A stretch of DNA of 64,000 nt from Burkholderiales bacterium (GCA_965279325.1 OZ257154.1:3521340-3585339); one strand, 5' to 3'. Shown: positions 6,601 through 26,814, counted from the stretch's first letter. Notes: generated from the sequence alone by a model not told the origin. Numbers and translations: made by a program.

Positions 6601-9600
6601 CCGCGGCGGCATCGTGCAGGACGACCCGGCGAATCCGGCCGCGCTCATCCTCGTCAACGGCACCTCGCCGAGGTTCGACAACGTCACGGTCGACTACGAC
6701 CTCGCACTGGCGGCCAACCAGTTGCTCTACGTGGACAACGGCAACCTCACGCTGGCGAACGGCCGGACGCTGACCATCGGATCCGCCGCCGGAGCCGCCT
6801 ACCTGTATTTCACGCAGAACGCCGCGCAGGAACTCAGGACCACCGCCGGCGGCTCGGCGCAAGTGTTGTTCGCCAATGCGTCCGGCACCAGTTACGTCTA
6901 CTCCAATTCCAGCACGCTCAGCCACCAGTTGACCATCCGGCCGGGCATCACGATCGGTGGCACCGGCGACGGTCTCGTCTACGCGCCCACGCTGGTCAAC
7001 GAGGGCACCATCCGCGCCGGAGCCACGGGCCAGAGCATCAATGTCCAGGCCTACTCGTTCGACAACCTGTCCGGCGGCCTGGTCGAAGCGGCGTCGGGCG
7101 GCTCGATCCTGTTCCAGAACTACGCCACGAGTGCCTCCGAGTTCACCAATGCAGGGACGATTCGCGCCGCGCCCGGTGGCACGGTCGAGCTCGACTACGG
7201 CACTTTCTCCGGCACCTTCCTGTCGTCGCTGACGAGTACCGGCGGAACGGTGGCCGTCGGCAGCGTGGTCGACAACACCAATCAGACGCTGACACTCGAC
7301 CCCGCTACCATCGGCAATCTGAACCTGTTCTCCGGCGGCACGATCCGCGGCGGCACGGTGACGAGCGTCGGCGGTGCAACGCTCACCATCCCGAACGCCG
7401 GTTCGATCACGCTCGACGGTGTGACGCTCGACACCGATCTGGTCGCGGCCGGCAACTCGACCATCTCCGTGCCCGGCACGCTCACGATCGTGGGTGGCCA
7501 CCGGCTATCGTTGGGCTCGGCGGGCACGTCGGCGACGCTCGTCTTCAATGGAGCCGCGGCCAACAGCCTGCTGCGCGGCGGCACCGGGACGGCCGAGGTC
7601 GCCTTCGCCTCCGGTACGGGCAGCAACCTTTATCACAACAGCGGCACGCTCGACATCGGTTCGGGTGTCCTGATCCATTCCACCGGCGGCAGCGGAACGA
7701 TCAACAACAACGGCCGGGTTTTCACCAACAGCGGCGAGATCGACGCGGACGTATCCGGCCAGACCATCAACCTCGTCGCGACCGGGATGACCAATAGCGG
7801 CCTGGTCGGCGCCTCGAACGGCGGCGTTCTCGCCCTGAGCGGTACGTTCAACCCGGCATCGCTCGGTGTATTCGATGCCAACGGAGGCACGGTCCGGATC
7901 GGAAGTTCGGCGATCTTCGACCTGCAAGGCGGCGTCTTCGCCATGACTGCCGCAACCGGCGGCGTCGAACTCTCCGCCGGCACGATCCGTAACGGCACCT
8001 TGCGCGATGCCGGCGCCGCCATGACGGTCGGTCCGTCCTCCGGAACGCTCGACGGCGTGACGCTCGACCAGAATCTCACGCTCGCGAGCCGGAATCTCAA
8101 CGTTCCGAACGGTCTCGCGATCCAGGGCGGACGCACCGTCAACCTCGAAGGCGGCGGCGTGCTGACGCTCACGGGTACCGGCGTCGCCCGCGCGATCACC
8201 CGTGGAGGCAGCGGCACGGCGGAGATCGTGCTCGGCAACGGCGCGATCAGCGCCAACAACACCGGCACGCTGACATTGGGGCAAGGGTTGCTCGTGCGCT
8301 CGGGTGCCAACGGCAACGGGTCGATCGGTAGCGGCAACACGACCGCACTCATCAATCAGGGCACGATCGCCGTCGACCAATCCGGCCGCTCCATTTCGCT
8401 GTTCGCGAACGCGACCGGATCGATCGACAATCAGGGGCTGATCCGCGTCGTGCAGGGCGCGTCCCTGTCCACGACCGGCCATGCTCTCGTCAACAACAAC
8501 ACGGCGGTCGGCGGCGGATTGCAGATCGGCGGCACGATCACGCTGGGCACGGGTATCACGCTCACCAACAACGGGCGATTCGGCCCGGGCAATTCGCCGG
8601 GCCTGGCGACGATCAGCGGCAATCTCGTGCTCGGCACCAACAGCGTCCTCGATATCGAAGTCGAAGGGCTCGCGCGCGGCACGCAATACGACGCGATCGA
8701 CGTCACGGGGACGGCCACCCTCGGCGGCGCGGTCAATGTCATCCGGTTCGGGGCCTACACGGAGACCGCCGGCGATATCCTGCGGGTCGTGACCGCGCAG
8801 GCTCTGTCCGGCAATTTCCGATCGGTCACGGGCACCGCCACGTGGACGGTGCAAACAGACGTGCGCAACGCGTTCCTGCAAGCGATCAGCAGCGATCCGA
8901 TTCTTCTCTGGACCCTCAACGGTTCCGGGGCCTGGACGACGGCAGCCAACTGGAACCTCAATCGAGTTCCGACGGCCACGGACATCGTGCTGATCGATCA
9001 ACCGGGCACGATCAACGTCGCATTGTCCTCCGGTGCCTTGGCGGCGCGACGCCTGTTCGCGTTCGACGGCGTCACGATCAACGGCGCGACGCTGACGCTC
9101 GCCGGGTCGTCGTTCGTGGGAGCGGGATCGTCGTTCGCGCTGTCCAGCGGCGGACTCGGCGGTGCCGGCGACCTCACGTTGACGGGCGCGTCCACCTGGA
9201 GCGGTGGTGTCCTGAGCGGCGGCAGCGCGTTGCGTCTCGCCTCCGGCGCCGTACTGACCGCCAGCGGCAACTCTGCCACTACGCAGCTCGCGGGTCGCAC
9301 GCTGGAGATCCAGAGCGGTGCGAGCGCGACCTTCAACGGCGAGATCGAATCCGAGCCCGGCACCAGCGTGATCAACAATGCCGGCACGCTGACCTTGGCG
9401 GGCACGCGGCTGAGCCACATCTATAACGCCAGCGGCACGATCACGGTGAACAACACCGGGACGGTCAACAAGACCGGCGCCGGCGTCTACGACCTGGGCA
9501 CCGACTTCAACAACGACGGTACCGTGAACATCCAGGGCGGGACACTGCGCCTGGCTGGCTCCGGCACCAGCAACGGCGTCGTTGCGATCGGCGGCAACGT

Positions 9601-12600
9601 GCTCGAACTGGCCGGCGGTACCCAGACGCTCACCAGCGCTTCGAACCTCTCGGGCAGTGGAACGCTACGCACCAGCGGCGGCAGTCTGGTCGTGAACACC
9701 ACCACACCGAACTTCAGCTTCAACGGCACGGTGCAGACCAGCAGCGGCAGTGCGAGCTTTGCACCGTCGATGACCCTGTCGCAGCTCACGTTGAGCGGTG
9801 GTACGACGACCTTCAATGCTGCGGTGAGCACGCCACGGCTGACCCAGAGCGGCGGTACGCTCGCCGGCGCAAGTACGCTCACGCTGAGCGGTCCCGGCTC
9901 CACCTGGAGCGGTGGCACGTGGAGCGGTGGTGGCCGCGTGGTGCTGAACACCGGGACCGATCTCGTGGCCAGCGGCAACTCTGCTACTACGCAGCTTGCG
10001 GGTCGCACGCTGGAGATCCAGAGCGGCGCGAGCGCGACCTTCAACGGCGAGATCGAATCCGAGCCCGGGACGAGCGTGATCGCCAACGCCGGCACGCTGA
10101 CCCTGGCGGGAACGCGGCTGAGCCACATCTACAACGCCAGCGGCACGATCACGGTGAACAACACCGGCACGATCAACAAGACCGGCACGGGCACCTACAG
10201 CCTTGGCGCCAATCTGAACAACGACGCGGTGTTGAATGTCCTCGCCGGCAATCTCACGAACGACGGCAATGGGACCAGCACGGGCGATCTCGATATCGCC
10301 GCCTCGGCGACCTATCAGCACGCCGGCGGAACGCAGACGTTGACCAACGCATCCGGCGTGACCGGCGTCGGCGAGTTGCTGGTGTCCGGCGGTACCTTGG
10401 CGGTGAACACGCCGACTGCCGGATTCGCGCATACGGGCGTCATCCGGAACACCGGCGGACTGGCGAGTTTCGCCGCGAATCTCACGCCGTCGCACGTGGC
10501 TCTCTCCGGCGGTACGACGACCTTCAACGGCAGCGTCATCACGCCGTTGCTCAGTCAGAGCGGCGGCACGCTTGCAGGCGGGAGTCTGGTGACGCTGACC
10601 GGCGCCGGATCGACCTGGACCGGTGGAACGTGGACCAGCAACGGCACCGTGCGCCTGAACCCGGGTGCATCGTTGACCGCCAATGGCAGCTCCGCCACCA
10701 CGCAGCTTGCGGGTCGCACGCTGGAGATCCAGAGCGGTGCGAGCGCGACCTTCAACGGCGAGATCGAATCCGAGCCCGGTACGAGCGTGATCGCGAATGC
10801 CGGCACGCTGACCCTGGCGGGCACGCGGCTGAGCCACATCTACAACGCCAGCGGCACGATCACGGTGAACAACACCGGCACGATCAACAAGACCGGCGCC
10901 GGCGTTTACGATCTGGGCACCGACTTCAACAACGACGGTACCGTGAACATCCAGGGCGGGACACTGCGCCTGGCCGGCTCCGGCGCCAGCAACGGTACCT
11001 TCGCGATCGGCGGCAGCGTCCTCGAGCAAGCCTTCGGGACGCAGACCTTCACCAGCGCCTCGAGCCTCTCGGGCAGCGGGACGCTGCGCACCAGCGGCGG
11101 CAGTCTCGTGGTCAACACCACCACAGCGAACTTCGGCTTCTCCGGTACGGTACAGACCAGCAACGGCAGTGCGAGCTTCGCCCCGTCGATGACCCTGTCG
11201 CAGCTCACGTTGAGCGGTGGTACGACGACCTTCAATGGCGCGGTGAGCACGCCGCAGTTGACGCAGAGCGCGGGCGTGCTCGCGGGCGCGAGCGTAGTGA
11301 CGCTCACTGGTCCCGGCTCCACCTGGAGCGGCGGTACGTGGACGGGCAACGGCACCGTTCGTCTCGCCTCCGGCGCCGTACTGACGGCGAGCGGCAGCAC
11401 CGCCAGCACGCAGTTGGCCGGTCGCACGCTGGAGATACAGAACGGTGCGAGCGCGATCTTCAACGGCGAGATCGAATCCGAACCCGGCACGAGTGTGATC
11501 AACAACGCCGGGACGCTGACGCTGGCCGGCACGCGGCTGAGCCACGTCTACAACGCCAGCGGCACGATCACGGTGAACAACACCGGGACCATCGAGAAGA
11601 CCGGTACGGGCGCCTACATCCTTGGCGCCAACCTCAACAACAACCAGACCGGTGATATCAACGCGTCCGGGACCCTCGTGCTCGCCGGTGGCACGCTCAC
11701 CAATGCCGGCACCCTGCGCCCGGCGGGTGCCGGCACCATCGGCACGCTCAATCTCGGCGGAAACTTCGTGCAAACCGGCACGGGCGTGATCGAGATCGAG
11801 ACGATCGGTACCGCGCCGGGCGATTCGGACGTGCTCGCCGTGTCGGGCAACGCGGCATTGGGTGGATTGCTGGAACTGGTCGCCATCAACGGCTACACGC
11901 CATCCGGCGCGAGTGCGTACGCCGACGTTCTCACCTACGCATCCCGTACCGGAGCCTTCGAAGCCGTCGGTGGCGCGGCATTCCCGGCGCTTACCCCGAC
12001 CTACGGAGCCAACGGCCTCACGATCGCGATCACCACCGGTGGCTCCATCGTGTGTCCCACCGGCTTCAGCGTGTGCTGGATCGGCACTTCGGATGGCAGC
12101 TGGAACGATACCGCGCAATGGAACACCGGCGCAGTGCCAACGGCAACGGACGATGTGTACGTGGCGGCGCCCGGCAGCATCACCATTACTGCGGCGAACG
12201 GCGGCGCCGTGAATCGACTCGTGAGCGAAGAGAGCTTCCTCCTGGCCGGTGGGACGTTCTTGCTCAACGGCGCATCGTCCGTCGGTCAGACACTGGCGAT
12301 CACGGGCGGTATCTTGCAGGCTAACGCAAACCTGGCGGCTGGATCGATCACCCTCAATGGTGGCGCGCTCAACGTCGGGGCTGGCGCGACGGTGTCCATC
12401 GCGAACCAGTTCGCATGGTCGGGGGGGGGCATCAATGGTGCGGGCACCAGCTCGGTGCTGCAGATCGCCGCGCCCGCCACCGTGAATGTGAGTGGCGCAA
12501 CGAAGGCGTTGGTCAACGTCGCCGTTGTCAACGCCGGCCAGATGAATCTGGGCCTCAGCACGAACAGCATGCTGCAGTTGAACGACGGTGCGTCAATTTC

Positions 12601-15600
12601 GAACAGCGGGACGCTCACGTTCACCGAGACCAACGCGATCGGTAGCGTGTCGGGCTCGGGCAGCCTCACCAATACCGGCACCATCGCTGCCGCCGCGAGC
12701 CGCACGGGCACCGTCCAGTCGACCACGTTCGCCAACAACGGCGGAACGCTGCAGGCGAGCGCGGTGGGCTCTTCGCTGCAGATGCGTTCCGCGTCGAGCA
12801 GCTACAGTGGTACGACGACCGTCGCTGGTACCGGTGTCCGGTTCGATGGCGGGGCACACACGTTCAGCGACGGCGCGACGGTCACGGGCCAGGTGAACCA
12901 GTCCAGCGCCATCACGTTCAATTCGACGGCCATCAACGGAACGTGGAACCAGTCTGGAGGTTCCACCAGCATCGCGGCGGGTGATACGTTGACGTTGAAC
13001 GGCACGGCGAACTGGTCCGGCGGCGGTATCTTCGGTGCGGGGCCAGGCGCAGCGCTCGCGCTTACCACGGGCGACGTGCTGAACGTGAGCGGCGCGACGC
13101 GCGGCTTGACCAATGTCGCCCTGACCAATGCCGGCCAGGTGAACGTCGGGCTCGACACCAACGGCATGCTGCAGCTGAACGACGGTGCCTCGATCGCGAA
13201 CAGCGGCGCACTCACTTTCGCGGAGACCAACGCCATCGGTACCGTTTCCGGGTCGGGCAGCTTTGCCAATGCCGGGACGATCGCCGTGGCCGCCGGCCGG
13301 ACCGGCACGGTCGAATCCACGAGCTTCAGCAATGGTGGCGGAGCCCTGCAGACGGGCTCCGGGTCGGTCCTGCGGATGCGCTCCGGGAACAGCAGCTACT
13401 CCGGCGCAACGACGATCACCGGTACCGGAGTGCAATTCGACGCGGGGACGCACACGTTTGCCGATGGCGCCAGTGTCGTCGGCCAGTTCAATCAGGCAAC
13501 GAACATCGTCTACGGCGACACGGTGCTGGCCGGTGTCTGGAACCTGAGCGCCGGCACGGCCTTGCTGGGTGCCGGCAAGACAATCACGTTGAACGGTACG
13601 GCCAATTGGTCAGGTGGCGGTATCGTCGGCTCGGGACCCACCTCGGCTCTCGCACTGTCCTCGGGCGACACGCTCAACATCACAGGTAGCACCAAGGCGC
13701 TGACCAACGCTCGTGTCGATGCGGGTCCCGGCTCCGCCGTGAACGTGGGCCTGAACACCAATGGAATGCTGCAGTTGAACGACGGTGCGTCGATCACGAA
13801 CAGTGGGACGCTCACGTTCACCGAGACCAACGCGATCGGTAGCGTGTCGGGCTCGGGCAGCCTCACCAATACCGGCACCATCGCTGCCGCCGCGAGCCGC
13901 ACGGGCACCGTCCAGCCGACCACCTTTGCCAACAACGGTGGAACGCTGCAGGCAAACGCGGCTGGCTCCTCGCTCCAGCTGCACTCGGGTTCGAGCAGCT
14001 ACAGTGGCACCACCACGCTCAACGGTACCGGCGTGCAGTTCAGCAGCGGCACCCACAGCTTCGCCGACGGTGCGAGCGTGAACGGCGTGCTGAACCAGTC
14101 TGCCAATCTCGTCTTCGGTACCGTTGCGCTCAACGGCACGTGGAACCAGTCGGGTGGCAACGCCCTGATCGACGCCAACGACACGCTCAGCGTCAACGGC
14201 ATCGTCAACTGGTCCGGCGGCGGCATCGTGGGCAGCGGTGGCTCCTTGCTGCAGGTCGCAGCGCCGGCGCGGTTCAACATGAGCGGGGCGACACGCGCAC
14301 TCACCAATGTGGCACTGGTGAATGCCGGAGTGATGAACCTCGGCCTGAACACCAACGCCGTGCTGCAGTTGAACGATGGGGCGTCAATCGCCAATGCGAG
14401 TACGTTCACTTTCGTCGAAACCAACGCTATCGGCACCGGCTCCGGATCGGGCAGCTTCGTCAACAATGGAACGTTGACGACGGTTGCCGGCGTGGCCGGA
14501 ACCGTGGGCAGCACGTCGTTCACCAACGCAGGTCTGGTGCGGGCCGCCGCCAACGCGAGCGTGGCGCTGCAGGCGGGCGGAACGCACACCGGTGCGTTCG
14601 AAGCGGACACCGGCGGCACCGTGGCATTCAGCGGCGGAACCCACAACCTGGGCGACGGCAGCCGCCTCACCAACGGACTGGTTCAAGTGAACGGGGGCAG
14701 CTTGAATCTCGTCGGGACCGGCGCCGGAACGCTGATACCGGTGGGTGCCGTCGTGTCATTGAGCGGTCAGACACTCGGCGGTTCAGGACTCCTGGACAAC
14801 CGGGGTACCCTCAATCTCGGCAACAGCACCGTCGCGGGCAGCGTGACCAATACCGGGACGTTGAACGTGACCGGCTCCAGCGCCGTCAACGGCGCGCGCT
14901 TCGACCAGAACAACGGAATCCTGTTGCTCAACGCGGGCTCGACGCTGACCAAGAACAGCGGCGTCTTCGCGTGGAACGGCGGTACGCTCGGCGGTCCCGG
15001 CACGCTGACCATGGCGAATGGAGCGTTGTTCGACATCGCAGGAACCGGCGCCCGCGTGCTCGACGGTCCGACGCTCAACATCGGCGGTCTCGGTCTGCAG
15101 GCCGGCTCGCTCGAAGTGCGCTCGGGGAGCCTCACCACCGCCGGCATCTCCACCATCGTGTCCGGCGCGACGCTCGTCCTCAATGGTGGCACCTTCAACA
15201 ACACCGCGCCCATGACTGTCGCGGGCACACTCGATCTGCGGACCGGCAGCCTTGCGCTCAACGGCGACGCGAGCCATACCGGCAGCTTCCTGCTCGGATC
15301 CGGGACGACGCTCGCTTTTGCATCCGGAATCCAGACGCTCACCGGACCGCTGTCGGGCAACGGCACGGTGGTGGTGTCCGGTGCGACGGTGACGTCGACT
15401 GGGTCCTATTCCGCGGCCACCACCAACGTCTCCGGCGGGACGCTCGCACTGAACGGCGCCGCGCAATCCCAGATCGTCAACGTGGGCCAGGGCGGAACGT
15501 TGGCGACAGGCGGAACCGTCACGTTCACGTCGCTCAACGTCAGCGGCGGGACTGTCGATGCGCAAGGCACCCTGAACGCCACCAATCTGTCGGTGGGGTC

Positions 15601-16513
15601 GGGTGCGGTGAACGGCGCTGGAACGGTGAACGTCGCGAACTTCACGCAATCCGGTGGCAGCGTGGACGGCACCGGCACTTTCAACGTGACCAACCGCTAC
15701 AACGCGACCGGCGGTTCGCTCGGCACCCGCTGGCGTGTGATGGCCATCACGCACACGCAGGGTGACCTCGTGTTGAATCGGGTGCACGCGGCGGGTACGA
15801 CGTCGGTCAGCGTGAGCAACGGCGCCCTGCGGGTCGTGGCGCTCGGCAGTCGCGCCGGTATCAGCGGCAGTACCGGCGTGACGGTGAACGCGTCGGGCGA
15901 CCTGGTATTGCAGGGCGGTTCCGGCGAGGGGGCGAGCGCCTTCGTGCAGTCCGGTGGCGGACCCTGCACGATCAACGTCGGCGGTACCACGCGACTGATC
16001 GGCGGGACCGGACCAAGCTCCAATGCCTTCATCAACGGCACTCCCGATGTCGGCAGCTTCGCGCAGCCGATCCGGCTCGCGGGACCGATCGAATTCATCG
16101 ACGGCTCGGGCGGTACGGCGCAGGTGCAGTCTTTCTCGCCGAGCAGCGTGTACGTGAACTTCCCGACCTTGAGTTCGGGCGGCTACACCGTCAACGGCGT
16201 CGAGGTGACATCTGCTGGATCGTCGGGATTCTTCGCGGGCGGCGCGCCTGCAGTGTTGAACAGCAATCTGTTCATCACGTACGGAGCGCTAGTGGTGCCG
16301 CCACCGCCACCACCACCACTCGGAGGTGGCACGTTGCAGCTTCCACTACTGACCGGAGCGCTCGAAGGCGGACCGTTAGCCACCAACGTGGTGGTTACCG
16401 CATCGGAACGTGGTCTGCTGTTCAACTTCCCAGAACCGCCGAAACCCGCTCTCGGCCCGGGTAGCCAAGGCGTGGTCGGAACCGAACGCCGGAGCATTCC
16501 ACAATGTCGATAG
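608..16513 (+). CDS. Giant two-partner-secretion exoprotein (TpsA / filamentous-haemagglutinin-like), 5,301 aa
   Basis: ATG at 608 verified in sequence (ORF track opens at 539). Signal peptide MSRRREFRPTTLAVALAACFPIASIG. TPS domain with QVLNRVIGGDPSQILG...QVFLINPNGIVFG, then GGFIETSG...WLIDPNNITIV. Remainder is Gly/Thr/Asn/Ser-rich beta-helix-like repeats. Confidence 0.92.
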   Translation: MSRRREFRPTTLAVALAACFPIASIGNPLDPAVVVGGATFQTQGNTLTVTNAPGTVINWQSFSIGQDEVTRFIQQSAASQVLNRVIGGDPSQILGTLQSNGQVFLINPNGIVFGVGAQVDVAGLVVSSLGITNADFLSGRLSFASGATAGSIRNDGTLRAVDGGSIYLIAPSIENHGIVAAPDGSVVLAAGKTATLMDSNRPFVQVEITAGGEAINVGQLVASNVGIYAGAVRVSGTVEATHAVMDESGRIRFAATGDTTITADGVVKADGASGGEVRIESGGTTLVDGKITANGSSGTGGTIVLLGAQVGLREESFVDASGLRGGGSVFVGGGVRGMDPTLPKASRTYVAPGAIVRADAQERGDGGRIVVWGDQFAGVHGALSARGGAVGGNGGFIETSGGSLVVSSTPDVTAPAGVGGTWLIDPNNITIVAGTGFTGINNVNPFASTVDGAQLGVTLIRNALTGGANVTITTGAGGSQAGDIVWSTGAALDYNGSGTNSLTLSAHNSITLSSNISDSNATTTDRLNLTLTPNSDGVGGGGVTVMASTVLDLKGGLLQVNGGGGITFANGSTLSNATLQAGAVTLNSGSIYFNGIALATDLTVPSGTTLRVDSGDLTLSGANRTLTLAGDMYLYQQTGTQTLGGAGRIVFASSGATIYSPYGGSTQVIGSGITLTGTTNGQFQSWGNFRNEGIIRSEVAGTTITVTKQNTAGTRAVNVGLIEATAGSVTLGGGPWENEDGPTNGTIRANGGTLNLNGAFSTATLGNLQSPSGVMQIGSGGVLTNTGQTLALGSGLTTASLRLANGAITGGTITTANGATFTQLGSGTSYLNGVTLGTDFVVPSGAVLRVDSGDLNLSGTNRVLTLQGDIYLYQQTGTQTLGGTGRIVFANNGAQIYAPYGGSTQVIGPGITLTGTTNGQFQSWGNIRNEGTIRSEVAGTTITVTKQNTGGTKAVNVGTIEATAGVVTLAGGSWENEDGALNGTIRSAGGTMNLTGGFSTATLGNLQSPSGVMQIGTSGVLTNTGETLALGSGLTTASLRLAGGAINGGTITTANGATFTQLGSGTSYLNGVTLGTDFVVPSGAVLRVDSGDLNLSGTNRVLTLQGDIYLYQQTGTQTLGGTGRIVFANNGAQIYAPYGGSTQVIGPGITLTGTTNGQFQSWGNIRNEGTIRSEVAGTTITVTKQNTGGTKTVNVGLIEAVAGSVTLSGGPWENEDGALNGTIRAGAAGTVNLNGAFNTATLGNLQTTGAGVMQLTASGSIANTGQTLTLGGTGTSASLRIAGGAINGGTITTANGASLTQLASGYSYLNDVTLDTDFTVPAGGILRVDSGGLTLAGTNRTLTLVGDMYLYQQTGTQTLGGTGRIVFANAGAQIYSNYAGNTVVVGPNVTVSGTTNGGLQLYSNFRNEGTIRSEVAGTTITVTKQNTGGTKAVNVGLIEAVAGSVTLSGGPWENEDGALNGTIRANGGTLNLNGAFSTATLGNLQSPGGVLQISSSGSLDNTGQTLALGSGLTTASLRLAGGAINGGTVTAANGATFTQLASGYSYLNDVTLDTDFTVPAGGILRVDSGGLTLAGANRTLTLAGDMYLYQQTGTQTLGGTGRIVFANANAQIYSNYTNNTVVVGPNVTVSGTTNGSFQLYSSFRNEGTIRSEVAGTTITVTKQNTGGTKAVNVGLIEAVAGSVTLSGGPWENEDGALNGTIRAGAAGTVNLNGAFNTVTLGNLQATGAGVMQLSSGGSIANTGQTLTLGGAGTSASLRLAGGAITGGTVATVNGASLTLAAGTSRMNAVTLATDLTVPVGSVLQVDSGDVTLSGSNRVLTLQGDMYLYQQTGTQTLGGTGRIVFANAGAQIYANYTNNTVVVGPNVTVNATTNGAFSLYSNFRNEGAIRSDVAGTTITVNKYGTGTSENVGSIVADGSSAVVLNGTTATLDNTGGTIRASNGGRIDINTTIATSDLGTLDATGGTVRLMSSGVLDNTGDTFQPGVDMAGSLTVAGGTIRGGIVQDDPANPAALILVNGTSPRFDNVTVDYDLALAANQLLYVDNGNLTLANGRTLTIGSAAGAAYLYFTQNAAQELRTTAGGSAQVLFANASGTSYVYSNSSTLSHQLTIRPGITIGGTGDGLVYAPTLVNEGTIRAGATGQSINVQAYSFDNLSGGLVEAASGGSILFQNYATSASEFTNAGTIRAAPGGTVELDYGTFSGTFLSSLTSTGGTVAVGSVVDNTNQTLTLDPATIGNLNLFSGGTIRGGTVTSVGGATLTIPNAGSITLDGVTLDTDLVAAGNSTISVPGTLTIVGGHRLSLGSAGTSATLVFNGAAANSLLRGGTGTAEVAFASGTGSNLYHNSGTLDIGSGVLIHSTGGSGTINNNGRVFTNSGEIDADVSGQTINLVATGMTNSGLVGASNGGVLALSGTFNPASLGVFDANGGTVRIGSSAIFDLQGGVFAMTAATGGVELSAGTIRNGTLRDAGAAMTVGPSSGTLDGVTLDQNLTLASRNLNVPNGLAIQGGRTVNLEGGGVLTLTGTGVARAITRGGSGTAEIVLGNGAISANNTGTLTLGQGLLVRSGANGNGSIGSGNTTALINQGTIAVDQSGRSISLFANATGSIDNQGLIRVVQGASLSTTGHALVNNNTAVGGGLQIGGTITLGTGITLTNNGRFGPGNSPGLATISGNLVLGTNSVLDIEVEGLARGTQYDAIDVTGTATLGGAVNVIRFGAYTETAGDILRVVTAQALSGNFRSVTGTATWTVQTDVRNAFLQAISSDPILLWTLNGSGAWTTAANWNLNRVPTATDIVLIDQPGTINVALSSGALAARRLFAFDGVTINGATLTLAGSSFVGAGSSFALSSGGLGGAGDLTLTGASTWSGGVLSGGSALRLASGAVLTASGNSATTQLAGRTLEIQSGASATFNGEIESEPGTSVINNAGTLTLAGTRLSHIYNASGTITVNNTGTVNKTGAGVYDLGTDFNNDGTVNIQGGTLRLAGSGTSNGVVAIGGNVLELAGGTQTLTSASNLSGSGTLRTSGGSLVVNTTTPNFSFNGTVQTSSGSASFAPSMTLSQLTLSGGTTTFNAAVSTPRLTQSGGTLAGASTLTLSGPGSTWSGGTWSGGGRVVLNTGTDLVASGNSATTQLAGRTLEIQSGASATFNGEIESEPGTSVIANAGTLTLAGTRLSHIYNASGTITVNNTGTINKTGTGTYSLGANLNNDAVLNVLAGNLTNDGNGTSTGDLDIAASATYQHAGGTQTLTNASGVTGVGELLVSGGTLAVNTPTAGFAHTGVIRNTGGLASFAANLTPSHVALSGGTTTFNGSVITPLLSQSGGTLAGGSLVTLTGAGSTWTGGTWTSNGTVRLNPGASLTANGSSATTQLAGRTLEIQSGASATFNGEIESEPGTSVIANAGTLTLAGTRLSHIYNASGTITVNNTGTINKTGAGVYDLGTDFNNDGTVNIQGGTLRLAGSGASNGTFAIGGSVLEQAFGTQTFTSASSLSGSGTLRTSGGSLVVNTTTANFGFSGTVQTSNGSASFAPSMTLSQLTLSGGTTTFNGAVSTPQLTQSAGVLAGASVVTLTGPGSTWSGGTWTGNGTVRLASGAVLTASGSTASTQLAGRTLEIQNGASAIFNGEIESEPGTSVINNAGTLTLAGTRLSHVYNASGTITVNNTGTIEKTGTGAYILGANLNNNQTGDINASGTLVLAGGTLTNAGTLRPAGAGTIGTLNLGGNFVQTGTGVIEIETIGTAPGDSDVLAVSGNAALGGLLELVAINGYTPSGASAYADVLTYASRTGAFEAVGGAAFPALTPTYGANGLTIAITTGGSIVCPTGFSVCWIGTSDGSWNDTAQWNTGAVPTATDDVYVAAPGSITITAANGGAVNRLVSEESFLLAGGTFLLNGASSVGQTLAITGGILQANANLAAGSITLNGGALNVGAGATVSIANQFAWSGGGINGAGTSSVLQIAAPATVNVSGATKALVNVAVVNAGQMNLGLSTNSMLQLNDGASISNSGTLTFTETNAIGSVSGSGSLTNTGTIAAAASRTGTVQSTTFANNGGTLQASAVGSSLQMRSASSSYSGTTTVAGTGVRFDGGAHTFSDGATVTGQVNQSSAITFNSTAINGTWNQSGGSTSIAAGDTLTLNGTANWSGGGIFGAGPGAALALTTGDVLNVSGATRGLTNVALTNAGQVNVGLDTNGMLQLNDGASIANSGALTFAETNAIGTVSGSGSFANAGTIAVAAGRTGTVESTSFSNGGGALQTGSGSVLRMRSGNSSYSGATTITGTGVQFDAGTHTFADGASVVGQFNQATNIVYGDTVLAGVWNLSAGTALLGAGKTITLNGTANWSGGGIVGSGPTSALALSSGDTLNITGSTKALTNARVDAGPGSAVNVGLNTNGMLQLNDGASITNSGTLTFTETNAIGSVSGSGSLTNTGTIAAAASRTGTVQPTTFANNGGTLQANAAGSSLQLHSGSSSYSGTTTLNGTGVQFSSGTHSFADGASVNGVLNQSANLVFGTVALNGTWNQSGGNALIDANDTLSVNGIVNWSGGGIVGSGGSLLQVAAPARFNMSGATRALTNVALVNAGVMNLGLNTNAVLQLNDGASIANASTFTFVETNAIGTGSGSGSFVNNGTLTTVAGVAGTVGSTSFTNAGLVRAAANASVALQAGGTHTGAFEADTGGTVAFSGGTHNLGDGSRLTNGLVQVNGGSLNLVGTGAGTLIPVGAVVSLSGQTLGGSGLLDNRGTLNLGNSTVAGSVTNTGTLNVTGSSAVNGARFDQNNGILLLNAGSTLTKNSGVFAWNGGTLGGPGTLTMANGALFDIAGTGARVLDGPTLNIGGLGLQAGSLEVRSGSLTTAGISTIVSGATLVLNGGTFNNTAPMTVAGTLDLRTGSLALNGDASHTGSFLLGSGTTLAFASGIQTLTGPLSGNGTVVVSGATVTSTGSYSAATTNVSGGTLALNGAAQSQIVNVGQGGTLATGGTVTFTSLNVSGGTVDAQGTLNATNLSVGSGAVNGAGTVNVANFTQSGGSVDGTGTFNVTNRYNATGGSLGTRWRVMAITHTQGDLVLNRVHAAGTTSVSVSNGALRVVALGSRAGISGSTGVTVNASGDLVLQGGSGEGASAFVQSGGGPCTINVGGTTRLIGGTGPSSNAFINGTPDVGSFAQPIRLAGPIEFIDGSGGTAQVQSFSPSSVYVNFPTLSSGGYTVNGVEVTSAGSSGFFAGGAPAVLNSNLFITYGALVVPPPPPPPLGGGTLQLPLLTGALEGGPLATNVVVTASERGLLFNFPEPPKPALGPGSQGVVGTERRSIPQCR
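2288..6590 (+). repeat. Coding tandem repeat family A: six copies, period 714-720 bp (238-240 aa), inside tpsA
   Basis: YLYQQTGTQTLGG landmark (TAC codon) at 2504, 3218, 3932, 4652, 5366, 6083. Copies 2 and 3 are almost base-identical over more than 400 bp (about 3070-3480 vs 3785-4195). Three degenerate units follow to about 8400. Confidence 0.9.
9190..11660 (+). repeat. Coding tandem repeat family B: four copies, period 708-711 bp (236-237 aa), inside tpsA
   Basis: GGGTCGCACGCTGGAGATCCAGAGCGG landmark at 9292, 10000, 10711, about 11419. Peptide TQLAGRTLEIQSGASATFNGEIESEPGTSVI.NAGTLTLAGTRLSHIYNASGTITVNNTGT recurs four times. Confidence 0.9.
12330..14680 (+). repeat. Coding tandem repeat family C: four copies, period 594-600 bp (~199 aa), inside tpsA
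   Basis: ATGCTGCAG(T/C)TGAACGA landmark at 12569, 13166, 13766, 14360. Peptide NWSGGGI...MLQLNDGASI.NSG.LTF.ETNAIG.VSGSGS recurs. Copies 1 and 3 share a near-identical stretch of about 150 bp. Confidence 0.9.
12421..12429 (+). repeat. G9 homopolymer inside the tpsA reading frame
   Basis: Read directly: ...gcatggtc ggggggggg catc..., encoding W-S-G-G-G-I. The same motif in the other three family-C units is encoded TGGTC(C/A)GG(C/T)GGCGG(T/C), without a run. Confidence 0.95.
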
Positions 16514-17859
16514 TGTCCAGGACGCGGATCGTCGCGGTGGCAGTACTGTGCCTGTGGACGGTGGCCGGCCATGCCGCCGAACCCGCCGCGCGTGCATCAG
16601 GCGTGAGCGGTGTGGTCATCATCGAACGGGCGGCGGGCGGCGTGAAGTTCGCCGCAGATGGCACTGCACTCGAGACGGGCGACACGCTGCGCACGGAAGC
16701 GGCCAGCCAGACTCGGCTCGATTTCGCCGACGGCACCCAGGTGTTGTTGCGCCCGCAGTCCGTGTTCAAGGTCGAGAAGTACCGCTACAACGAGGCGAAG
16801 CCGCAGGAGGACGGGGCGCTGCTGCGCCTGCTCAAAGGCGGCCTGCGAACCGTCACGGGCCTGATGGGCAAGCGACGACCGGATGCATTCCAGCTCGGCG
16901 CCGGCACCGCGACGATCGGTATCCGCGGCACCGATTTCGTCGTCCGCATGTGCACCGACGATTGCGTCGCCGAGACGAAGGTGGCGGCCAAGACGGATCT
17001 GCCCCCGTTGCCAAGCTTCGCGGGACGGGTGATGAGTGTGCAGGGCCGGCTCCAGGTGGATCGAGGGGCCGGACCGCGGCCGCTGGCGGCAGGCGAGACT
17101 TTCTACGGCGGCGACACTCTGATCACGGCACCGTCCGCGCTGGCAGTCATCCTGTTTCGCGACGGCATGCGCGTCGTGCTCAAGGCCGACACGAAATTCC
17201 TCGTGGACACATTCCGCTACGAAGCCGCGAATCCGGAGCGCGGCAACGCGATCCTGCGCCTGCTCAAGGGCAGCCTGCGCGCGGTGACCGGTCTCGTCGC
17301 CCAGCGCAACCCGTCGCAGGTGCAGTTCGGTACTTCGGTAGCGACCATCGGCATCCGCGGTACGGGATTCGATCTGCGCTGTACCGGACCGTGCGCGAGC
17401 GAGGCGCCGGTCGCCTCGGACGAACTCGACGGACTGGCGGCTTACACCTGGAAGGGCTGCACGACGATGCTGACCGAGCAGGGCAACCTCGATCTGTGCG
17501 AGGGGCAGGCCGGTCAGGTTTCCGGCCCGGGCAAGGCACCGCGCAAGTTCGATGCGGTGCCGCGCTACTTCCTCGACGACAAGTCACCCCGGCCGGACGC
17601 GATCGATGGCGATCCGGATACGGTGTTCGGTCCGCAGAAGCAGGACTTCTCTTCCGCGGGCACTTACGTCTACGTCCGGGATGGCGCCGTCGTGCTGCGG
17701 GGTGGCGGTACGGAACAGGGCCTCGCGCGTGGCGAGGTCGGGTATCTCGATCAGAACGGGCGGTTTTCGCGCCTGCCCACGCCCCCGCTATTTATCGATC
17801 GCGATCCGGTGCTGCGTCACATGGATACCGACGCGAGCATGAGTTGCAGCGTGCCGTGA
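16504..17859 (+). CDS. Periplasmic protein with two tandem FecR-like domains, 451 aa
   Basis: Signal peptide MSIVSRTRIVAVAVLCLWTVAGHAAEP. Internal duplication: GDTLRT..RLDFADGTQVLL..LLRLLKGGLRTVTGL..ATIGIRGTDF and GDTLIT..VILFRDGMRVVL..ILRLLKGSLRAVTGL..ATIGIRGTGF. Start overlaps the tpsA stop by 10 nt. Confidence 0.8.
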   Translation: MSIVSRTRIVAVAVLCLWTVAGHAAEPAARASGVSGVVIIERAAGGVKFAADGTALETGDTLRTEAASQTRLDFADGTQVLLRPQSVFKVEKYRYNEAKPQEDGALLRLLKGGLRTVTGLMGKRRPDAFQLGAGTATIGIRGTDFVVRMCTDDCVAETKVAAKTDLPPLPSFAGRVMSVQGRLQVDRGAGPRPLAAGETFYGGDTLITAPSALAVILFRDGMRVVLKADTKFLVDTFRYEAANPERGNAILRLLKGSLRAVTGLVAQRNPSQVQFGTSVATIGIRGTGFDLRCTGPCASEAPVASDELDGLAAYTWKGCTTMLTEQGNLDLCEGQAGQVSGPGKAPRKFDAVPRYFLDDKSPRPDAIDGDPDTVFGPQKQDFSSAGTYVYVRDGAVVLRGGGTEQGLARGEVGYLDQNGRFSRLPTPPLFIDRDPVLRHMDTDASMSCSVP

Positions 17860-17872
17860 ACGACCGTCGGTA

Positions 17873-18529
17873 CTAGCGGGTCGGGGTCACGGCGTCGCGG
17901 ATTCGCAGAGCGGCCTGCAACATCGATTCGCCCGTGCGGCGTTCGATGTGTTCCACGCGCAGGAAGCGCGCGCTGTTGTGATCGGGATCGATGTCGGACG
18001 CCAGCGCCCTGCGGCTCAGGTGGAAGCGCATGAGTCGGTCGGCGCGATCGGCGTGACGATCGGTGAGATAGAGCCCCATGTAGATGTCGGCCAGGAGTTC
18101 GGCGCGCTGCACCTGGGCCGATGCTTCGCCGGCGCGCGCGGAATCGCTCGCCACGGCCTGGGCCTTGATGAACCCGGGGGACGCATTCGCGTGCTGTTCG
18201 GCGCAGTGTCCCATTTCATGGGCCAGCAGGCCCTCGAGATACGGCGCGCGATCCGACGGGTCCAGCTGCGCGAGCGTGGTGTCCAGGAACGAGGAGTTCC
18301 TGAGGGCGGCTACTTCGCAATCGGCCGGCCTGGCGAACGCAGCCAGGGCCGTGGTGATGGACGGGTCCGTGACGTGCCGCAGTCGGGGTTGCCACGCAGG
18401 GTCCGCGGCGGTACGGACCGCGGCCGCGAAGGCCTGATCGATGTCGGTCGCCGATTCCGCGGGTGCCGGCAGGAACGTCGCCAGGACTGCCGCCATGACG
18501 GGGATTGCCGGGGTTTGCCAGTGCCACAT
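17873..18529 (-). CDS. Hypothetical exported protein with HEXXH zinc-metallopeptidase motif (LLAHEMGHCAEQH), 218 aa
   Basis: ATG with GGAG 8-11 nt upstream. Hydrophobic N-terminus (AIPVMAAVLATFLPAPAESA). Single HEMGH motif; family not recognised. Stop lies 14 nt from the stop of the convergent FecR gene. Confidence 0.6.
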   Translation of the reverse strand: MWHWQTPAIPVMAAVLATFLPAPAESATDIDQAFAAAVRTAADPAWQPRLRHVTDPSITTALAAFARPADCEVAALRNSSFLDTTLAQLDPSDRAPYLEGLLAHEMGHCAEQHANASPGFIKAQAVASDSARAGEASAQVQRAELLADIYMGLYLTDRHADRADRLMRFHLSRRALASDIDPDHNSARFLRVEHIERRTGESMLQAALRIRDAVTPTR

Positions 18530-18604
18530 GTTTGCGTCGCTCCGTAGGTTCAGTGTTCGAACCGACGACTACCGGGCGACGACACGCGCTGGCGGGGAAA
18601 CGTC

Positions 18605-18712
18605 ACGGTCCCTCGAACCGGCAGCCCCGCTGGCATTCGGGAGAGATGCTCTCCCGGGTAGCCCGGTGGCTTTGCGTCCCCGTCTTTCGACGGGTTTGCC
18701 CTTGTAGCTCGT
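18605..18712 (-). promoter_or_regulatory. c-di-GMP class I (GEMM-I) riboswitch aptamer in the 5' leader of the HEXXH gene
   Basis: Minus-strand read: AAGGGCAAACCCGUCGAAAGACGGGGACGCAAAGCCACCGGGCUACCCGGGAGAGCAUCUCUCCCGAAUGCCAGCGGGGCUGCCGG. It has the hallmark GGCAAACC-[GAAA-capped helix]-GGGACGCAAAGCC...CCGG...AGCGGGGYURCCGG. Confidence 0.8.
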
Positions 18713-18861
18713 CCATTGCCGGGAGGAATGAAACCCGATCCCGGCGACGCACCTATTTCGGCGGTCCGGACACTTTCTTGAGGTGATTTTTCGGGTGGCC
18801 GTCTGGCGCGCTAGATGCTTCGGTCATGACCCCCGCCACTGCCCGCCCAATCGGAGGCTCC

Positions 18862-19176
18862 ATGCTCGTCACCAATCTCGAAATCATCCCCGGCAAACGC
18901 GTCGGCAAGCACCTCGGCCTCGTACAGGGCAGCACCGTGCGATCCAAGCATGTCGGCAAGGACATCCTGGCCGGCCTCAAGAACATCGTCGGCGGCGAGC
19001 TGAAGGGCTATACCGAACTGCTCAAGGAAGCCCGCGAGGAGGCCACCGAGCGCATGGTCCAGCAGGCCCAGTCGGTCGGCGCCAATGCGGTCCTCAACGT
19101 GCGCTTCAGCACCTCGTCGATTACCCAGGGCGCGGCGGAGATGCTCGCCTACGGCACCGCCGTGTTCCTCGAGTAA
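18862..19176 (+). CDS. YbjQ/UPF0145 family (heavy-metal-binding-domain) protein
   Basis: MLVTNLEIIPGKRV...GGELKGYTELL...ANAVLNVRF...AEMLAYGTAV is typical YbjQ. Internal ATG at 18862 chosen over ORF start 18826 to match family N-termini. Confidence 0.75.
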   Translation: MLVTNLEIIPGKRVGKHLGLVQGSTVRSKHVGKDILAGLKNIVGGELKGYTELLKEAREEATERMVQQAQSVGANAVLNVRFSTSSITQGAAEMLAYGTAVFLE

Positions 19177-19182
19177 GCCGCC

Positions 19183-19623
19183 ATGTGGGATCTCGTCATA
19201 TTCGTCACCCTCGTGGTGATCGGCTACGTCGTCGGGCGCATCCTGGAGGCGAGGCACTACCGTTCGATCCGGGCGCGCGAACAGGAACTGCGCGACATCA
19301 TGCTGTTCGCCAGCCGTTTCCCGCCGACGCTCGAGCCGTTGCAGCAGGATCTGGTGGCCGGCAGCGTCGTGGTCTCGGCCGACTATTTCAAGGTCGTGGT
19401 CGCGGGCTTGCAGAGCATCGTCGGCGGTCGCATGAAGACCTACGAGACACTGCTGGATCGCGCTCGCCGCGAGGCCATCCTGCGCATGAAGGAGGAAGCG
19501 CGCGGGCGCGGCTCGAAGATGATCGTGAACGTGAAGTTCCAGACCTTTTCCATTCCGGGCCGCAAGGCCGGCAGCCTCAAGGGCGTGGAAATGCTGGCGT
19601 ACGGGACGGCCTTGCTTGCCTGA
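19183..19623 (+). CDS. Membrane-anchored YbjQ-like domain protein
   Basis: N-terminal TM helix (WDLVIFVTLVVIGYVVG) followed by a YbjQ-like core (IVGGRMKTYETLL...MIVNVKF...VEMLAYGTAL). Starts 6 nt after the upstream YbjQ gene. Confidence 0.65.
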   Translation: MWDLVIFVTLVVIGYVVGRILEARHYRSIRAREQELRDIMLFASRFPPTLEPLQQDLVAGSVVVSADYFKVVVAGLQSIVGGRMKTYETLLDRARREAILRMKEEARGRGSKMIVNVKFQTFSIPGRKAGSLKGVEMLAYGTALLA

Positions 19624-20485
19624 CTATTCGAACCCGCAGATTCCGGACGGGATCAACGTCAGCCACACGCATCCGCTGGCGGATTTCGCTCGCCTTCTGG
19701 GGGGCATCCTGGTCGTGCTGGTCGTCGTCGTCGCAATCCTCGCGCTCGTGGCGGGACACGTGGCGAAATACATCCCCTTCGAGACCGAGCTCGCCATCGC
19801 CAACCGCTTCGCCGGCCAGCTCGATCAGCCCGGATCGAAGCCCGTCGTCGACTATCTGGATGGGGTCACCCGCAAGATCGTCGCGGCGCACGACCTGCCA
19901 CCGGGAATGACGATCACGGTGCATTACCTGCCGGACGACACGGTGAACGCCTTCGCCACCCTCGGCGGGCACGTCGCGGTCTATGGCGGGTTGATGCGGC
20001 GGATGCCCAACGAGAACGCGCTGGCGATGGTGATCTCGCACGAGATCGCGCACGTGAAGCTGCGGCATCCGATCTCCACGATGGGGCGTGGAATCGTGGT
20101 CGGCGTCGCCCTGACCGTGGTCTCGTCGGCAGCCGGCGGCGACCTGGTCGGCCGGGCACTCGGACCGGCCGGGTTGCTCACCATGATGAGCTTCTCGCGC
20201 GACCAGGAACGCGATGCCGATGCGGTGGGCCTTGAGGCCGTCGTGAAGGCGTATGGCCATGCGGGCGGTGCCGACGATACCTTCCGGAAGCTGAAGGAAT
20301 CCTTTGCCGGCAAGACCAGGCCCCCGGAGTTCTTCAGCACCCACCCGCTCGACGATGAGCGCATCGCGACCATCGCCGACACGGCCCGCGAACGCGGCTG
20401 GGCCGCGACCGGGAGCCTGACGCCCTACCCGCCGGAAGTCACCGCGGCGTTGGACGAGACCCGGACCGATACGCCGAAACCGTAG
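19616..20485 (+). CDS. M48-family zinc metallopeptidase, membrane-anchored
   Basis: HEIAHVKLRHP zinc motif and N-terminal TM segment (LLGGILVVLVVVVAILALVAG). TTG start overlaps the upstream gene by 8 nt; exact start uncertain. Confidence 0.75.
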   Translation: MPDYSNPQIPDGINVSHTHPLADFARLLGGILVVLVVVVAILALVAGHVAKYIPFETELAIANRFAGQLDQPGSKPVVDYLDGVTRKIVAAHDLPPGMTITVHYLPDDTVNAFATLGGHVAVYGGLMRRMPNENALAMVISHEIAHVKLRHPISTMGRGIVVGVALTVVSSAAGGDLVGRALGPAGLLTMMSFSRDQERDADAVGLEAVVKAYGHAGGADDTFRKLKESFAGKTRPPEFFSTHPLDDERIATIADTARERGWAATGSLTPYPPEVTAALDETRTDTPKP

Positions 20486-25524: not shown

Positions 25525-25720
25525 ACTACGGGTGCCCCCCGCAAATGCCGTTTGGCCGGGTCCCTTGAACCGGGCGGTTCAAGAGTGGTCGTGATCCGGG
25601 CGCCGCAGGTACGTCCGACGTGGGACGCGCACAAAAGCGCCTGACTGGTTCACAACGCTACGAAGTGCATTGGTTCAGAGAACATCGGCCTTGGCGAACA
25701 CCGCAGGGAGCGAAGCTTCA
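25525..25720 (-). ncRNA. ssrS: 6S RNA
   Basis: Conserved position immediately 3' of zapA. 5' arm CCCUGCGGUGUUCGCCAAGGCC (25708-25687) pairs imperfectly with 3' arm GGCCAAACGGCAUUUGCGGGGGG (25557-25535). Ends at a terminator. Ends approximate. Confidence 0.65.
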
Positions 25721-26286: not shown

Positions 26287-26461
26287 GGCTGGGACTATAC
26301 TTAGGAAAAATCATAAGAGTCAACGGATAACAAGACGTTTTGCATCCTGTTTTGCAGAACTTTCATCGATCCCCGCGTTGGCGCAAGACCCGTGCCTCGC
26401 CGGACCTCCGGTCTGCGTGCGTTCGGCCCGTGGATCGATTCGCGCTACACTCCAGCCCAAG

Positions 26462-26650
26462 TTTCAGGTGCCCGCGCCGGGTTTCCCGGCAGGGTTAAAC
26501 GGGAAACAGGTGAGCGGTTCGCGCCGCGATGCCTGTGCTGCCCCCGCAACGGTCAGTGAGGATGAGTGCGTCACGATGCCACTGTCGGCACGTGTCGCCC
26601 CGGGCTTGAGCCCGGGCCGACACCCGATGGGAAGGCGGCGCCCTTGGTCT
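26462..26650 (+). promoter_or_regulatory. Cobalamin (B12) riboswitch
   Basis: GGUUAAACGGGAAACAGGUGAGC...CCUGUGCUGCCCCCGCAACGGUCAG...GCCACUG (26578-26584)...GGGAAGGCGG. Upstream of a BtuB-like receptor. Confidence 0.85.
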
Positions 26651-26814
26651 CGCGAGCCCGGATACCGGCCAGGAACCCGACCGGCACGATTCCGCGGGGG
26701 GCGGACACCGGCGACGGTCGGTTCCCGACGGTCGCTGCCCCGACCACCCATGGCGTCATGTCATTCCGATTCAAGGCGTGCGGAGGGCACGCCACCACCA
26801 GGGTGGGGGACATC

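Follow-up and report, generated by a model that had tools for sequence, protein, structure and literature searches.

What does a small zinc-motif protein do when its gene is preceded by a riboswitch and converges on the genes of a giant exoprotein? This question is raised by a 64,000-nucleotide (nt) stretch of DNA from a Burkholderiales bacterium (GCA_965279325.1 OZ257154.1:3521340-3585339; the window), in which an ATG-initiated open reading frame (ORF) at 17873-18529 on the minus strand encodes a protein of 218 amino acids (aa), here called the target protein. An earlier reading of the same DNA, the original prediction, had described a hydrophobic N-terminus, a length of 218 aa and one HEMGH motif, all of which can be read directly from the ORF sequence; the motif comprises residues 104-108 (nt 18206-18220, minus strand). 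It had further proposed that an RNA sensing cyclic di-GMP (c-di-GMP) tunes the protein, which would then trim or release the neighbouring exoprotein. We consider it fairly probable that the locus is a canonical c-di-GMP-I riboswitch controlling a Sec-exported, minimal gluzincin-type peptidase of about 190 aa in its mature form, from an undescribed family. Our confidence in the RNA taken by itself is higher than in this composite. Aptamer, leader and ORF are conserved together across the orthologues.

The predicted riboswitch ahead of the target gene was recovered. We observed a c-di-GMP-I-type aptamer at 18616-18709 on the minus strand, that is, on the coding strand of the target ORF and 86 nt 5' of its ATG (Rfam RF03167, 70.1 bits against a gathering score of 59, E = 1.5e-14, model positions 1-80). 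The aptamer carries the canonical ligand-contact nucleotides, and it is found upstream of every orthologue whose contig reaches upstream. It resembles canonical c-di-GMP-I (GEMM-I) riboswitches such as Vc2 of V. cholerae in its full-length covariance-model match, its GAAA tetraloop hairpin, its GGGCAAACC / GACGCAAAGCC / GCUGCC core and its location 5' of a same-strand ORF. It differs from the Vc2 type in its platform, which is GC-rich, lacks a terminator and is apparently translational.

Rfam labels RF03167 'c-di-GMP-I-GGC', and the RNA might accordingly be a true specificity variant with a ligand other than c-di-GMP. RF03167 was the best-scoring model in the window and in four orthologous loci (L006, L008, L016 and L023), as such a variant would have it. 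The window's own score on the canonical model, RF01051 (gathering score 35), is masked by clan competition (Rfam clan CL00126). Across the orthologous leaders, some scored best on RF01051 (65-81 bits) and others on RF03167 (68-72 bits), and the RF01051-assigned aptamers differ at few positions, all outside the ligand-contact core. Together with the Rfam consensus, we take the 'GGC' label to mean a G in place of A47. In the Rfam alignment the window has GACGC-A-AAGCC against the RF03167 consensus GACGC-G-AAgCc; where the variant consensus reads GACGCGAAG, the window reads GACGCAAAG. This is the sole mismatch in the alignment block, and the orthologues are identical there. The A at the GGC-diagnostic position is presumably A47 of the Vc2 structure, the base that intercalates between two guanines. 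The ligand contacts, which we take to be G20 in GGGCAAACC, A47 and C92 in GCUGCC (Vc2 numbering), lie in blocks that are conserved throughout: the window contains GGGCAAACC, GACGCAAAGCC and GCUGCCGG, and none of the three varies in any aligned leader covering these positions.

Against a ligand other than c-di-GMP, then, the window carries an A and not the diagnostic G of the GGC consensus, leaders with the same core go to RF01051 at 75-81 bits, and covariance models for c-di-GMP riboswitches recognise the same sequences as one another (PMC9943018). We regard a different ligand as extremely improbable. Because the diagnostic base is A, near-identical leaders are assigned to RF01051 and the models overlap in what they recognise, we treat the window RNA as a canonical c-di-GMP-I riboswitch for which the label 'GGC variant' is misleading. 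The identity as RF03167 proper was rejected on the first of these grounds. From the contact nucleotides, we infer that c-di-GMP is the ligand.

The protein that this RNA precedes has few relatives. Only nine close relatives (61-90% identity) were found among 5.8 billion clusters, and an exhaustive phmmer search over 1.84 billion representatives returned 12 matches. A profile search widened the family to about 60 clusters, many of them from Limnobacter and other Burkholderiales. All members are about 219 aa long, all are annotated as 'hypothetical' and look like Burkholderiales proteins, and none has a Pfam domain or a match in NCBIfam or the PDB. The target protein is the founding window member of this undescribed family of small, gluzincin-like proteins with an HExxH...ExxAD pattern. 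The target ORF is under strong purifying selection. Eight residues (C71, H104, E105, H108, C109, E144, D148 and R174) are invariant in 36-53 sequences down to 19% identity, and five more (A147, Y154, P182, H184 and E201) are at least 90% conserved in the same sets.

These residues fall largely into three motifs, all on the minus strand. HEMGH (18206-18220; H104, E105 and H108), followed directly by the invariant C109, is the predicted zinc-binding and catalytic motif. An isolated HEXXH would mean little, but this one is not a chance occurrence, because H104, E105 and H108 are invariant in 53 homologues down to 19% identity. ELLAD (18086-18100; E144, A147 and D148) supplies the ExxA(D) motif of the long helix that comes next, the 'glutamate helix', and would provide the third zinc ligand. 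DPDH (17978-17989; D181, P182 and H184) is a conserved distal motif whose histidine is a candidate for a transition-state or fourth-ligand residue; D181 is invariant in 18 sequences. Gluzincins of the M48/M56, M34 and M13 type are recognised by an HExxH motif and an ExxA(D) motif on the helix that follows (PMC6414381). In our family the HExxH is conserved in all 53 sequences, and the glutamate of ExxA lies on the helix after the active-site helix, with E144 and D148 invariant and A147 conserved in at least 90% of members.

AlphaFold2 (AF2) models agree with this arrangement. The mean predicted local distance difference test score (pLDDT) was 82.6 for the full-length protein and 90.6 without the signal peptide, the latter model having a predicted template-modelling score (pTM) of 0.87. 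The order of elements is a backing helix, three strands, a short helix, the long HExxH helix (residues 91-114, containing HEMGH), a disordered loop, and a further long helix (residues 133-158, containing E144 and D148). The gluzincins of M48/M56 (including soluble minigluzincins and PDB 3C37), M34 and M13 are alike in having an HExxH helix, ExxAD on the next helix, and a backing helix with a three-stranded sheet in the N-terminal subdomain (PMC6414381). The target protein differs from the known gluzincin families by its invariant C71 and C109, the latter directly after HExxH, by its DPxH motif, by having no transmembrane segments and by scoring below all curated thresholds. From the invariant pair of cysteines we infer a C71-C109 disulfide. 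These data suggest that the target protein is a minimal gluzincin-type zinc metallopeptidase, and a catalytically active one.

Several comparisons weigh against this assignment. Pfam and NCBIfam gave only sub-threshold zinc-peptidase matches and none over a curated threshold, and the protein thus fits no nameable family, just as the original prediction had it. Foldseek comparison of the 218-aa protein, which that prediction had put forward as a check, matched no solved fold significantly: with both AF2 models searched against the PDB, the best E values were 0.3-0.6 and the TM scores at most 0.40. Likewise, hhalign against the M48 peptidase encoded 1.1 kb away aligned 22 columns round HEXXH with a probability of 4%. 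Searches of PDB sequences with the single protein and with profiles of 18 and 36 sequences gave no meaningful match. The sub-threshold profile matches that recur are all to zinc peptidases (M48, YpfJ/Zn_peptidase, DUF4953, DUF922 and ATLF), and the weak top Foldseek matches are mostly HEXXH-type zinc enzymes (MATCAP, an M61 peptidase, the HExxH domain of ChlB, SPRTN, DPP III, CapP, YbeY and lethal factor).

Two named families were considered and rejected. Peptidase M48 (PF01435) scored 15.6 bits against 20.3, with weak matches in 8 of 36 members. YpfJ/KPN_02809 (NF050010, PF04228) scored 20 bits against 250, and the motif here is HEMGHC and not HExGHH.

The same results bear on the possibility that the target is an HExxH protein but not a peptidase, being instead some other metal-dependent enzyme or a zinc-binding periplasmic factor. 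That no peptidase family scored above threshold and no fold matched significantly is what this would lead one to expect, and one of the weak fold matches is to the HExxH domain of ChlB, an oxygenase. In addition, H184, which is nearly invariant, might act as a fourth ligand and block the site, a situation discussed for PDB 3C37 (PMC6414381). However, all 53 sequences keep the catalytic glutamate of HExxH and the full ExxAD motif, the predicted order of elements is that of gluzincins, and the weak profile matches that recur are all to peptidases. We hold a non-peptidase to be quite unlikely. The description that suits the target protein best is that of a small, new family within the gluzincin clan.

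Export of the target protein is probable on similar grounds. Codons 1-26 (18452-18529, minus strand) encode a predicted Sec signal peptide with the hydrophobic core AIPVMAAVLATFL and a cleavage-type site PAPA|ES, as read from the sequence; the N-terminus as a whole reads MWHWQTPAIPVMAAVLATFLPAPA|ES. In the AF2 model, pLDDT is low here and residues 9-18 form a helix. Signal peptides of the classical kind occur in distant homologues, and in one of these proteins (P0012, locus L013) the lipobox LLSGC takes their place, which supports an extracytoplasmic location for the family. The lack of Lys or Arg in the n-region of the target signal peptide speaks the other way. Because the hydrophobic N-terminus ends in an AxA-type site, homologues carry signal peptides or a lipobox, and the Cys pair is invariant, we conclude that the protein is probably exported.

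How the aptamer would control the gene was assessed in the expression platform (18530-18615, minus strand), which comprises 86 nt without an intrinsic terminator and is 88% identical across seven loci. No terminator-like site was found on the minus strand. The Shine-Dalgarno (SD) sequence GGAG lies at 18540-18543 (minus strand). In a conserved hairpin at 18542-18568, UCGU pairs with ACGG overlapping the SD GGAG, and the lineage of L008, L015 and L016 carries one compensatory change (G-C to A-U). When the aptamer was enforced in folding, a longer stem covered both the SD and the AUG. The central strand of this stem, GUAGUCGUC, has its complement in GACGAGCUAC, made up of the 5' strand of P1 and its flank. 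The SD/AUG stem and the P1-competing helix were pairable in 85% and 92% of alignment cells, respectively, compared to 11-70% for slid controls. The modelled AUG was more accessible without ligand in the window, L001 and L006.

The switch most likely acts at translation initiation. We lean, by a little, towards an OFF switch in which high c-di-GMP lowers translation: P1, once stabilised by the ligand, would free GUAGUCGUC, which could then complete the stem over the SD and the AUG. Three observations count against this picture. Covariation in both candidate helices was no better than in shuffles, because the leaders are 88% identical. The leaders of L008, L015 and L016 showed no effect on AUG accessibility in folding. 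In constrained and unconstrained folding of seven leaders, SD accessibility did not change consistently between the bound and apo states.

RNA pairing may also reach into the coding sequence. RNAalifold paired alignment columns 95-108 with 204-219, that is, the 3' strand of the aptamer with the first codons. Codons 3-8 (CAC UGG CAA ACC CCG GCA; pairing 18505-18529 with 18617-18630) are complementary to the aptamer 3' strand GCGGGGCUGCCGGU, and one compensatory change is present in L004 (GGAG with CUCC). Third positions were conserved at 1/5 sites in codons 1-9 compared to 2/39 later, which are very few sites. The odd and invariant N-terminus MWHWQTP may have been shaped by RNA pairing.

Downstream, the target gene meets a two-partner secretion (TPS) operon on the plus strand, with the order tpsB-tpsA-fecR-like. 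The window begins with the 3' end of tpsB (1-597; ShlB/FhaC-type, Pfam ShlB 53.1 bits, E = 4e-14), followed by the giant exoprotein gene tpsA (608-16513; 5,301 aa from the ATG, TPS domain E = 1.8e-32). The last gene of the operon is a FecR-domain ORF (16504-17859; 451 aa, Pfam FecR E = 7e-21), the start of which overlaps the tpsA stop. The operon thus combines a TpsB of the ShlB/Omp85 type with a TpsA that has an N-terminal TPS domain. The FecR ORF and the target ORF are convergent, as the original prediction had noted, and their stops are separated by 13 nt, one base less than the 14 nt given there. The FecR-like protein itself has a signal peptide, two FecR stretches and paired CxxxC motifs. 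A LapA 'retention module' (37.8 bits, cut-off 50) is among its sub-threshold NCBIfam matches, as are the Leptospira surface proteins Lsa33 and LipL45.

We found neither a terminator-like structure nor any other structured element between the convergent stops (z = -0.6). The main output of the riboswitch could therefore be antisense, with riboswitch-gated transcription running via the short ORF into the antisense strand of fecR-tpsA and interfering with the TPS operon. The 13-nt gap without a terminator is in keeping with such read-through, and c-di-GMP riboswitches show the strongest antisense tendency of any class (PMC9943018). Yet the ORF is under strong purifying selection, the family also exists without the riboswitch, and the platform looks translational. 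Antisense transcription is very unlikely to be the main output, though such an effect could coexist with riboswitch control of the peptidase itself.

For an exported peptidase under riboswitch control, a substrate unrelated to TPS is the default embedded in our explanation. The alternative is that the protease is a dedicated processing or release factor for TpsA, with RNA-mediated c-di-GMP control standing in for LapD/LapG. Eight orthologous loci (L001, L003, L004, L005, L008, L015, L016 and L023) keep the convergent FecR gene together with a large upstream ORF, and the clade of 61-90% identical orthologues keeps both the riboswitch and the FecR/TpsA neighbour. The riboswitch-bearing clade is thus exactly the TPS-adjacent clade. 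Adjacency is kept in all nine independent orthologous contigs, including L001, which lacks the ybjQ-ybjQ-M48 block found on the other side of the window's riboswitch and yet has the junction intact. The protease/TPS junction therefore outlived at least one rearrangement.

Two findings weaken the link to TPS. Synteny in the clade spans the whole locus, including a cobalamin riboswitch 8 kb off (L015, L016 and L023). Because the orthologous genomes share this long-range synteny, the junction is essentially one evolutionary observation. Members at 25-42% identity (L009, L010, L017, L019 and L021), judged only where contigs were long enough, had no TPS gene, FecR gene or riboswitch; they lay among unrelated housekeeping genes, for example aldehyde dehydrogenase, APH, PHB depolymerase, efp-earP and xerC. 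Look-ups and collection scans for co-occurrence likewise brought up nothing but orthologues in synteny and distant members lacking TPS. The family is not TPS-specific, and at most one clade has been recruited. The original prediction had named a gene lacking any TPS neighbour in most genomes as the finding that would speak against it. That is what we observed for the family at large, but not for the riboswitch-bearing clade. As for the processing role that it proposed, the adjacency is constant within the 61-90% clade, and the data do not support the role beyond this adjacency.

Two distant members of about 40% identity (P0010 and P0011; regions L009 7825-9075 and L010 11909-13129) each have, within 1-2 kb, a gene with PHB_depo_C, the C-terminal domain of polyhydroxybutyrate depolymerase, in contexts that otherwise differ. 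This proximity may reflect lineage synteny, or it may hint at another association.

One circumstantial feature of TpsA speaks for recruitment. Mature TpsA has only four cysteines. A Pro-rich linker of variable sequence, PPPPPPP in the window and PNPNPN... in L008, is framed by two of them, C5120 and the penultimate residue C5300. It is part of a conserved C-terminal module (15965-16513, residues about 5120-5301) that ends in PPPKP...RRSIPQC(R/K) and is also present in L001, L003, L004, L008 and L015. Pfam identified no family in the last 670 aa of TpsA. The module is reminiscent of the periplasmic retention device of CdrA and of the FhaB prodomain. From its layout, the Cys-bracketed module may be a periplasmic retention loop.

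If TpsA is the substrate, the enzyme would, at low c-di-GMP, cut the periplasmically retained C-terminal module of TpsA, leading to release of the exoprotein, in parallel to ZmpI/PPEP-1 with CD2831 and to LapG with CdrA. Spelled out, a periplasmic gluzincin whose level is set by a riboswitch would cut the Pro-rich linker of TpsA before the Cys5120...Cys5300 loop, or would cut the FecR-like partner, and so free the exoprotein from the TpsB pore as c-di-GMP falls, as a Gram-negative, RNA-based counterpart of LapD/LapG. We regard this detailed scheme as improbable. No specific candidate substrate other than TpsA or the FecR-like partner offers itself, and this one is tentative and of low probability.

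Known systems of c-di-GMP-gated adhesin release offer two comparisons. In Pseudomonas, c-di-GMP acts through LapD/LapG to set whether LapA, or the TpsA protein CdrA, is cut at its retained end by a periplasmic protease. LapG is a calcium-dependent cysteine protease that is sequestered by the c-di-GMP receptor LapD. As the scheme considered here would, this system gates periplasmic proteolysis of a giant adhesin by c-di-GMP, and with CdrA the adhesin is likewise a TPS substrate. Unlike LapG, the target protein would be a zinc enzyme whose synthesis is under RNA control. We found neither lapD/lapG nor a LapD-like receptor among the ORFs examined in 1-21,880, and no LapG-type site (TAAG, AAAG or PAAG) in TpsA. 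Identity as a LapG-type protease was rejected given the HExxH basis, the lack of a TAAG-type site in TpsA and the lack of a LapD-like ORF in 1-21,880.

The closer parallel is in Firmicutes. In C. difficile, zmpI (PPEP-1, CD2830) carries a c-di-GMP-I riboswitch and is repressed by c-di-GMP; its product releases adhesin by cleavage, with CD2831 and CD3246 as substrates, both encoded by genes under c-di-GMP-II riboswitches of the ON type (PMC6366702). PPEP-1 and Paenibacillus PPEP-2 (substrate VMSP) are encoded directly beside their substrates in opposite orientation (PMC8610288). The original prediction had offered an RNA-based analogue of the Pseudomonas logic, but RNA-based c-di-GMP control of adhesin proteolysis is not new: it is already established in Firmicutes for ZmpI/PPEP-1 with CD2831 and PPEP-2 with VMSP (PMC6366702, PMC8610288). 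PPEP-1 shares with the target a small size (about 220 aa), secretion, an HEXXH zinc metalloprotease motif, a c-di-GMP-I riboswitch on the mRNA and an adjoining adhesin gene in the opposite orientation; it also belongs to the HExxH+ExxA gluzincin group (PMC6414381).

The differences are as clear. The host of the window is Gram-negative, with a periplasmic and outer-membrane setting; the neighbour is a TPS exoprotein and not an LPXTG protein; and the TPS operon in the window has no riboswitch of its own in the Rfam scan. Nor does the protein belong with PPEP-1. ATLF (PF07737) was matched by 1 of 36 members at E = 0.19, lethal factor appeared in Foldseek at E = 2.5-6.7, and PPEP-1 was absent among the top 50 matches listed. 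Membership in PPEP/M34 was rejected for this lack of a profile or fold match. On paper, the locus works like the PPEP-1 system without being a member of it.

The precedent of a riboswitch-controlled HEXXH protease beside its adhesin substrate (PMC6366702, PMC8610288) and the conserved C-terminal module of TpsA, which looks like a periplasmic retention loop with an exposed linker, thus join the conserved adjacency in favour of a dedicated TpsA factor. Against it stand the single evolutionary event with whole-locus synteny, the family members elsewhere without a TPS neighbour, the convergent genes that are not co-transcribed, a TpsA without a LapG-type TAAG site, and the lack of any sequence or fold relationship to PPEP-1 or LapG. 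We give the dedicated factor an appreciable but clearly minor chance.

With or without that link, what is new here is the protein family, together with a Gram-negative version of a regulatory design known from elsewhere. Through the riboswitch, a protein family without any annotation becomes open to functional study, and the role of the zinc enzyme in this lineage, whatever that is, is tied to the decision between motile and sessile life. If the enzyme processes the TPS adhesin, there would be at least three separate origins of c-di-GMP-gated adhesin release (LapD/LapG, PPEP-1 of the Firmicutes and the window system), and the riboswitch, a 190-aa protease and a defined C-terminal target would form a compact and tractable module for the study of TpsA retention and release. 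Without such processing, there would still be a gluzincin family not described before, in which an unusual pair of cysteines flanks the active site; this would be of specialist interest only.

Other features lie near the locus. Divergent from the riboswitch promoter region, two YbjQ_1 genes (putative heavy-metal-binding) and an M48 peptidase gene occupy 18826-20485 on the plus strand; this block is present in L006 and absent from L001, where a gene for a DAO-family oxidoreductase abuts the leader. The cobalamin riboswitch (26449-26687, plus strand, 79.6 bits) has the same relative position in L015, L016 and L023. A 6S/SsrS RNA match at 25532-25712 (minus strand) scored 50.7 bits, slightly over the gathering score of 46.4.

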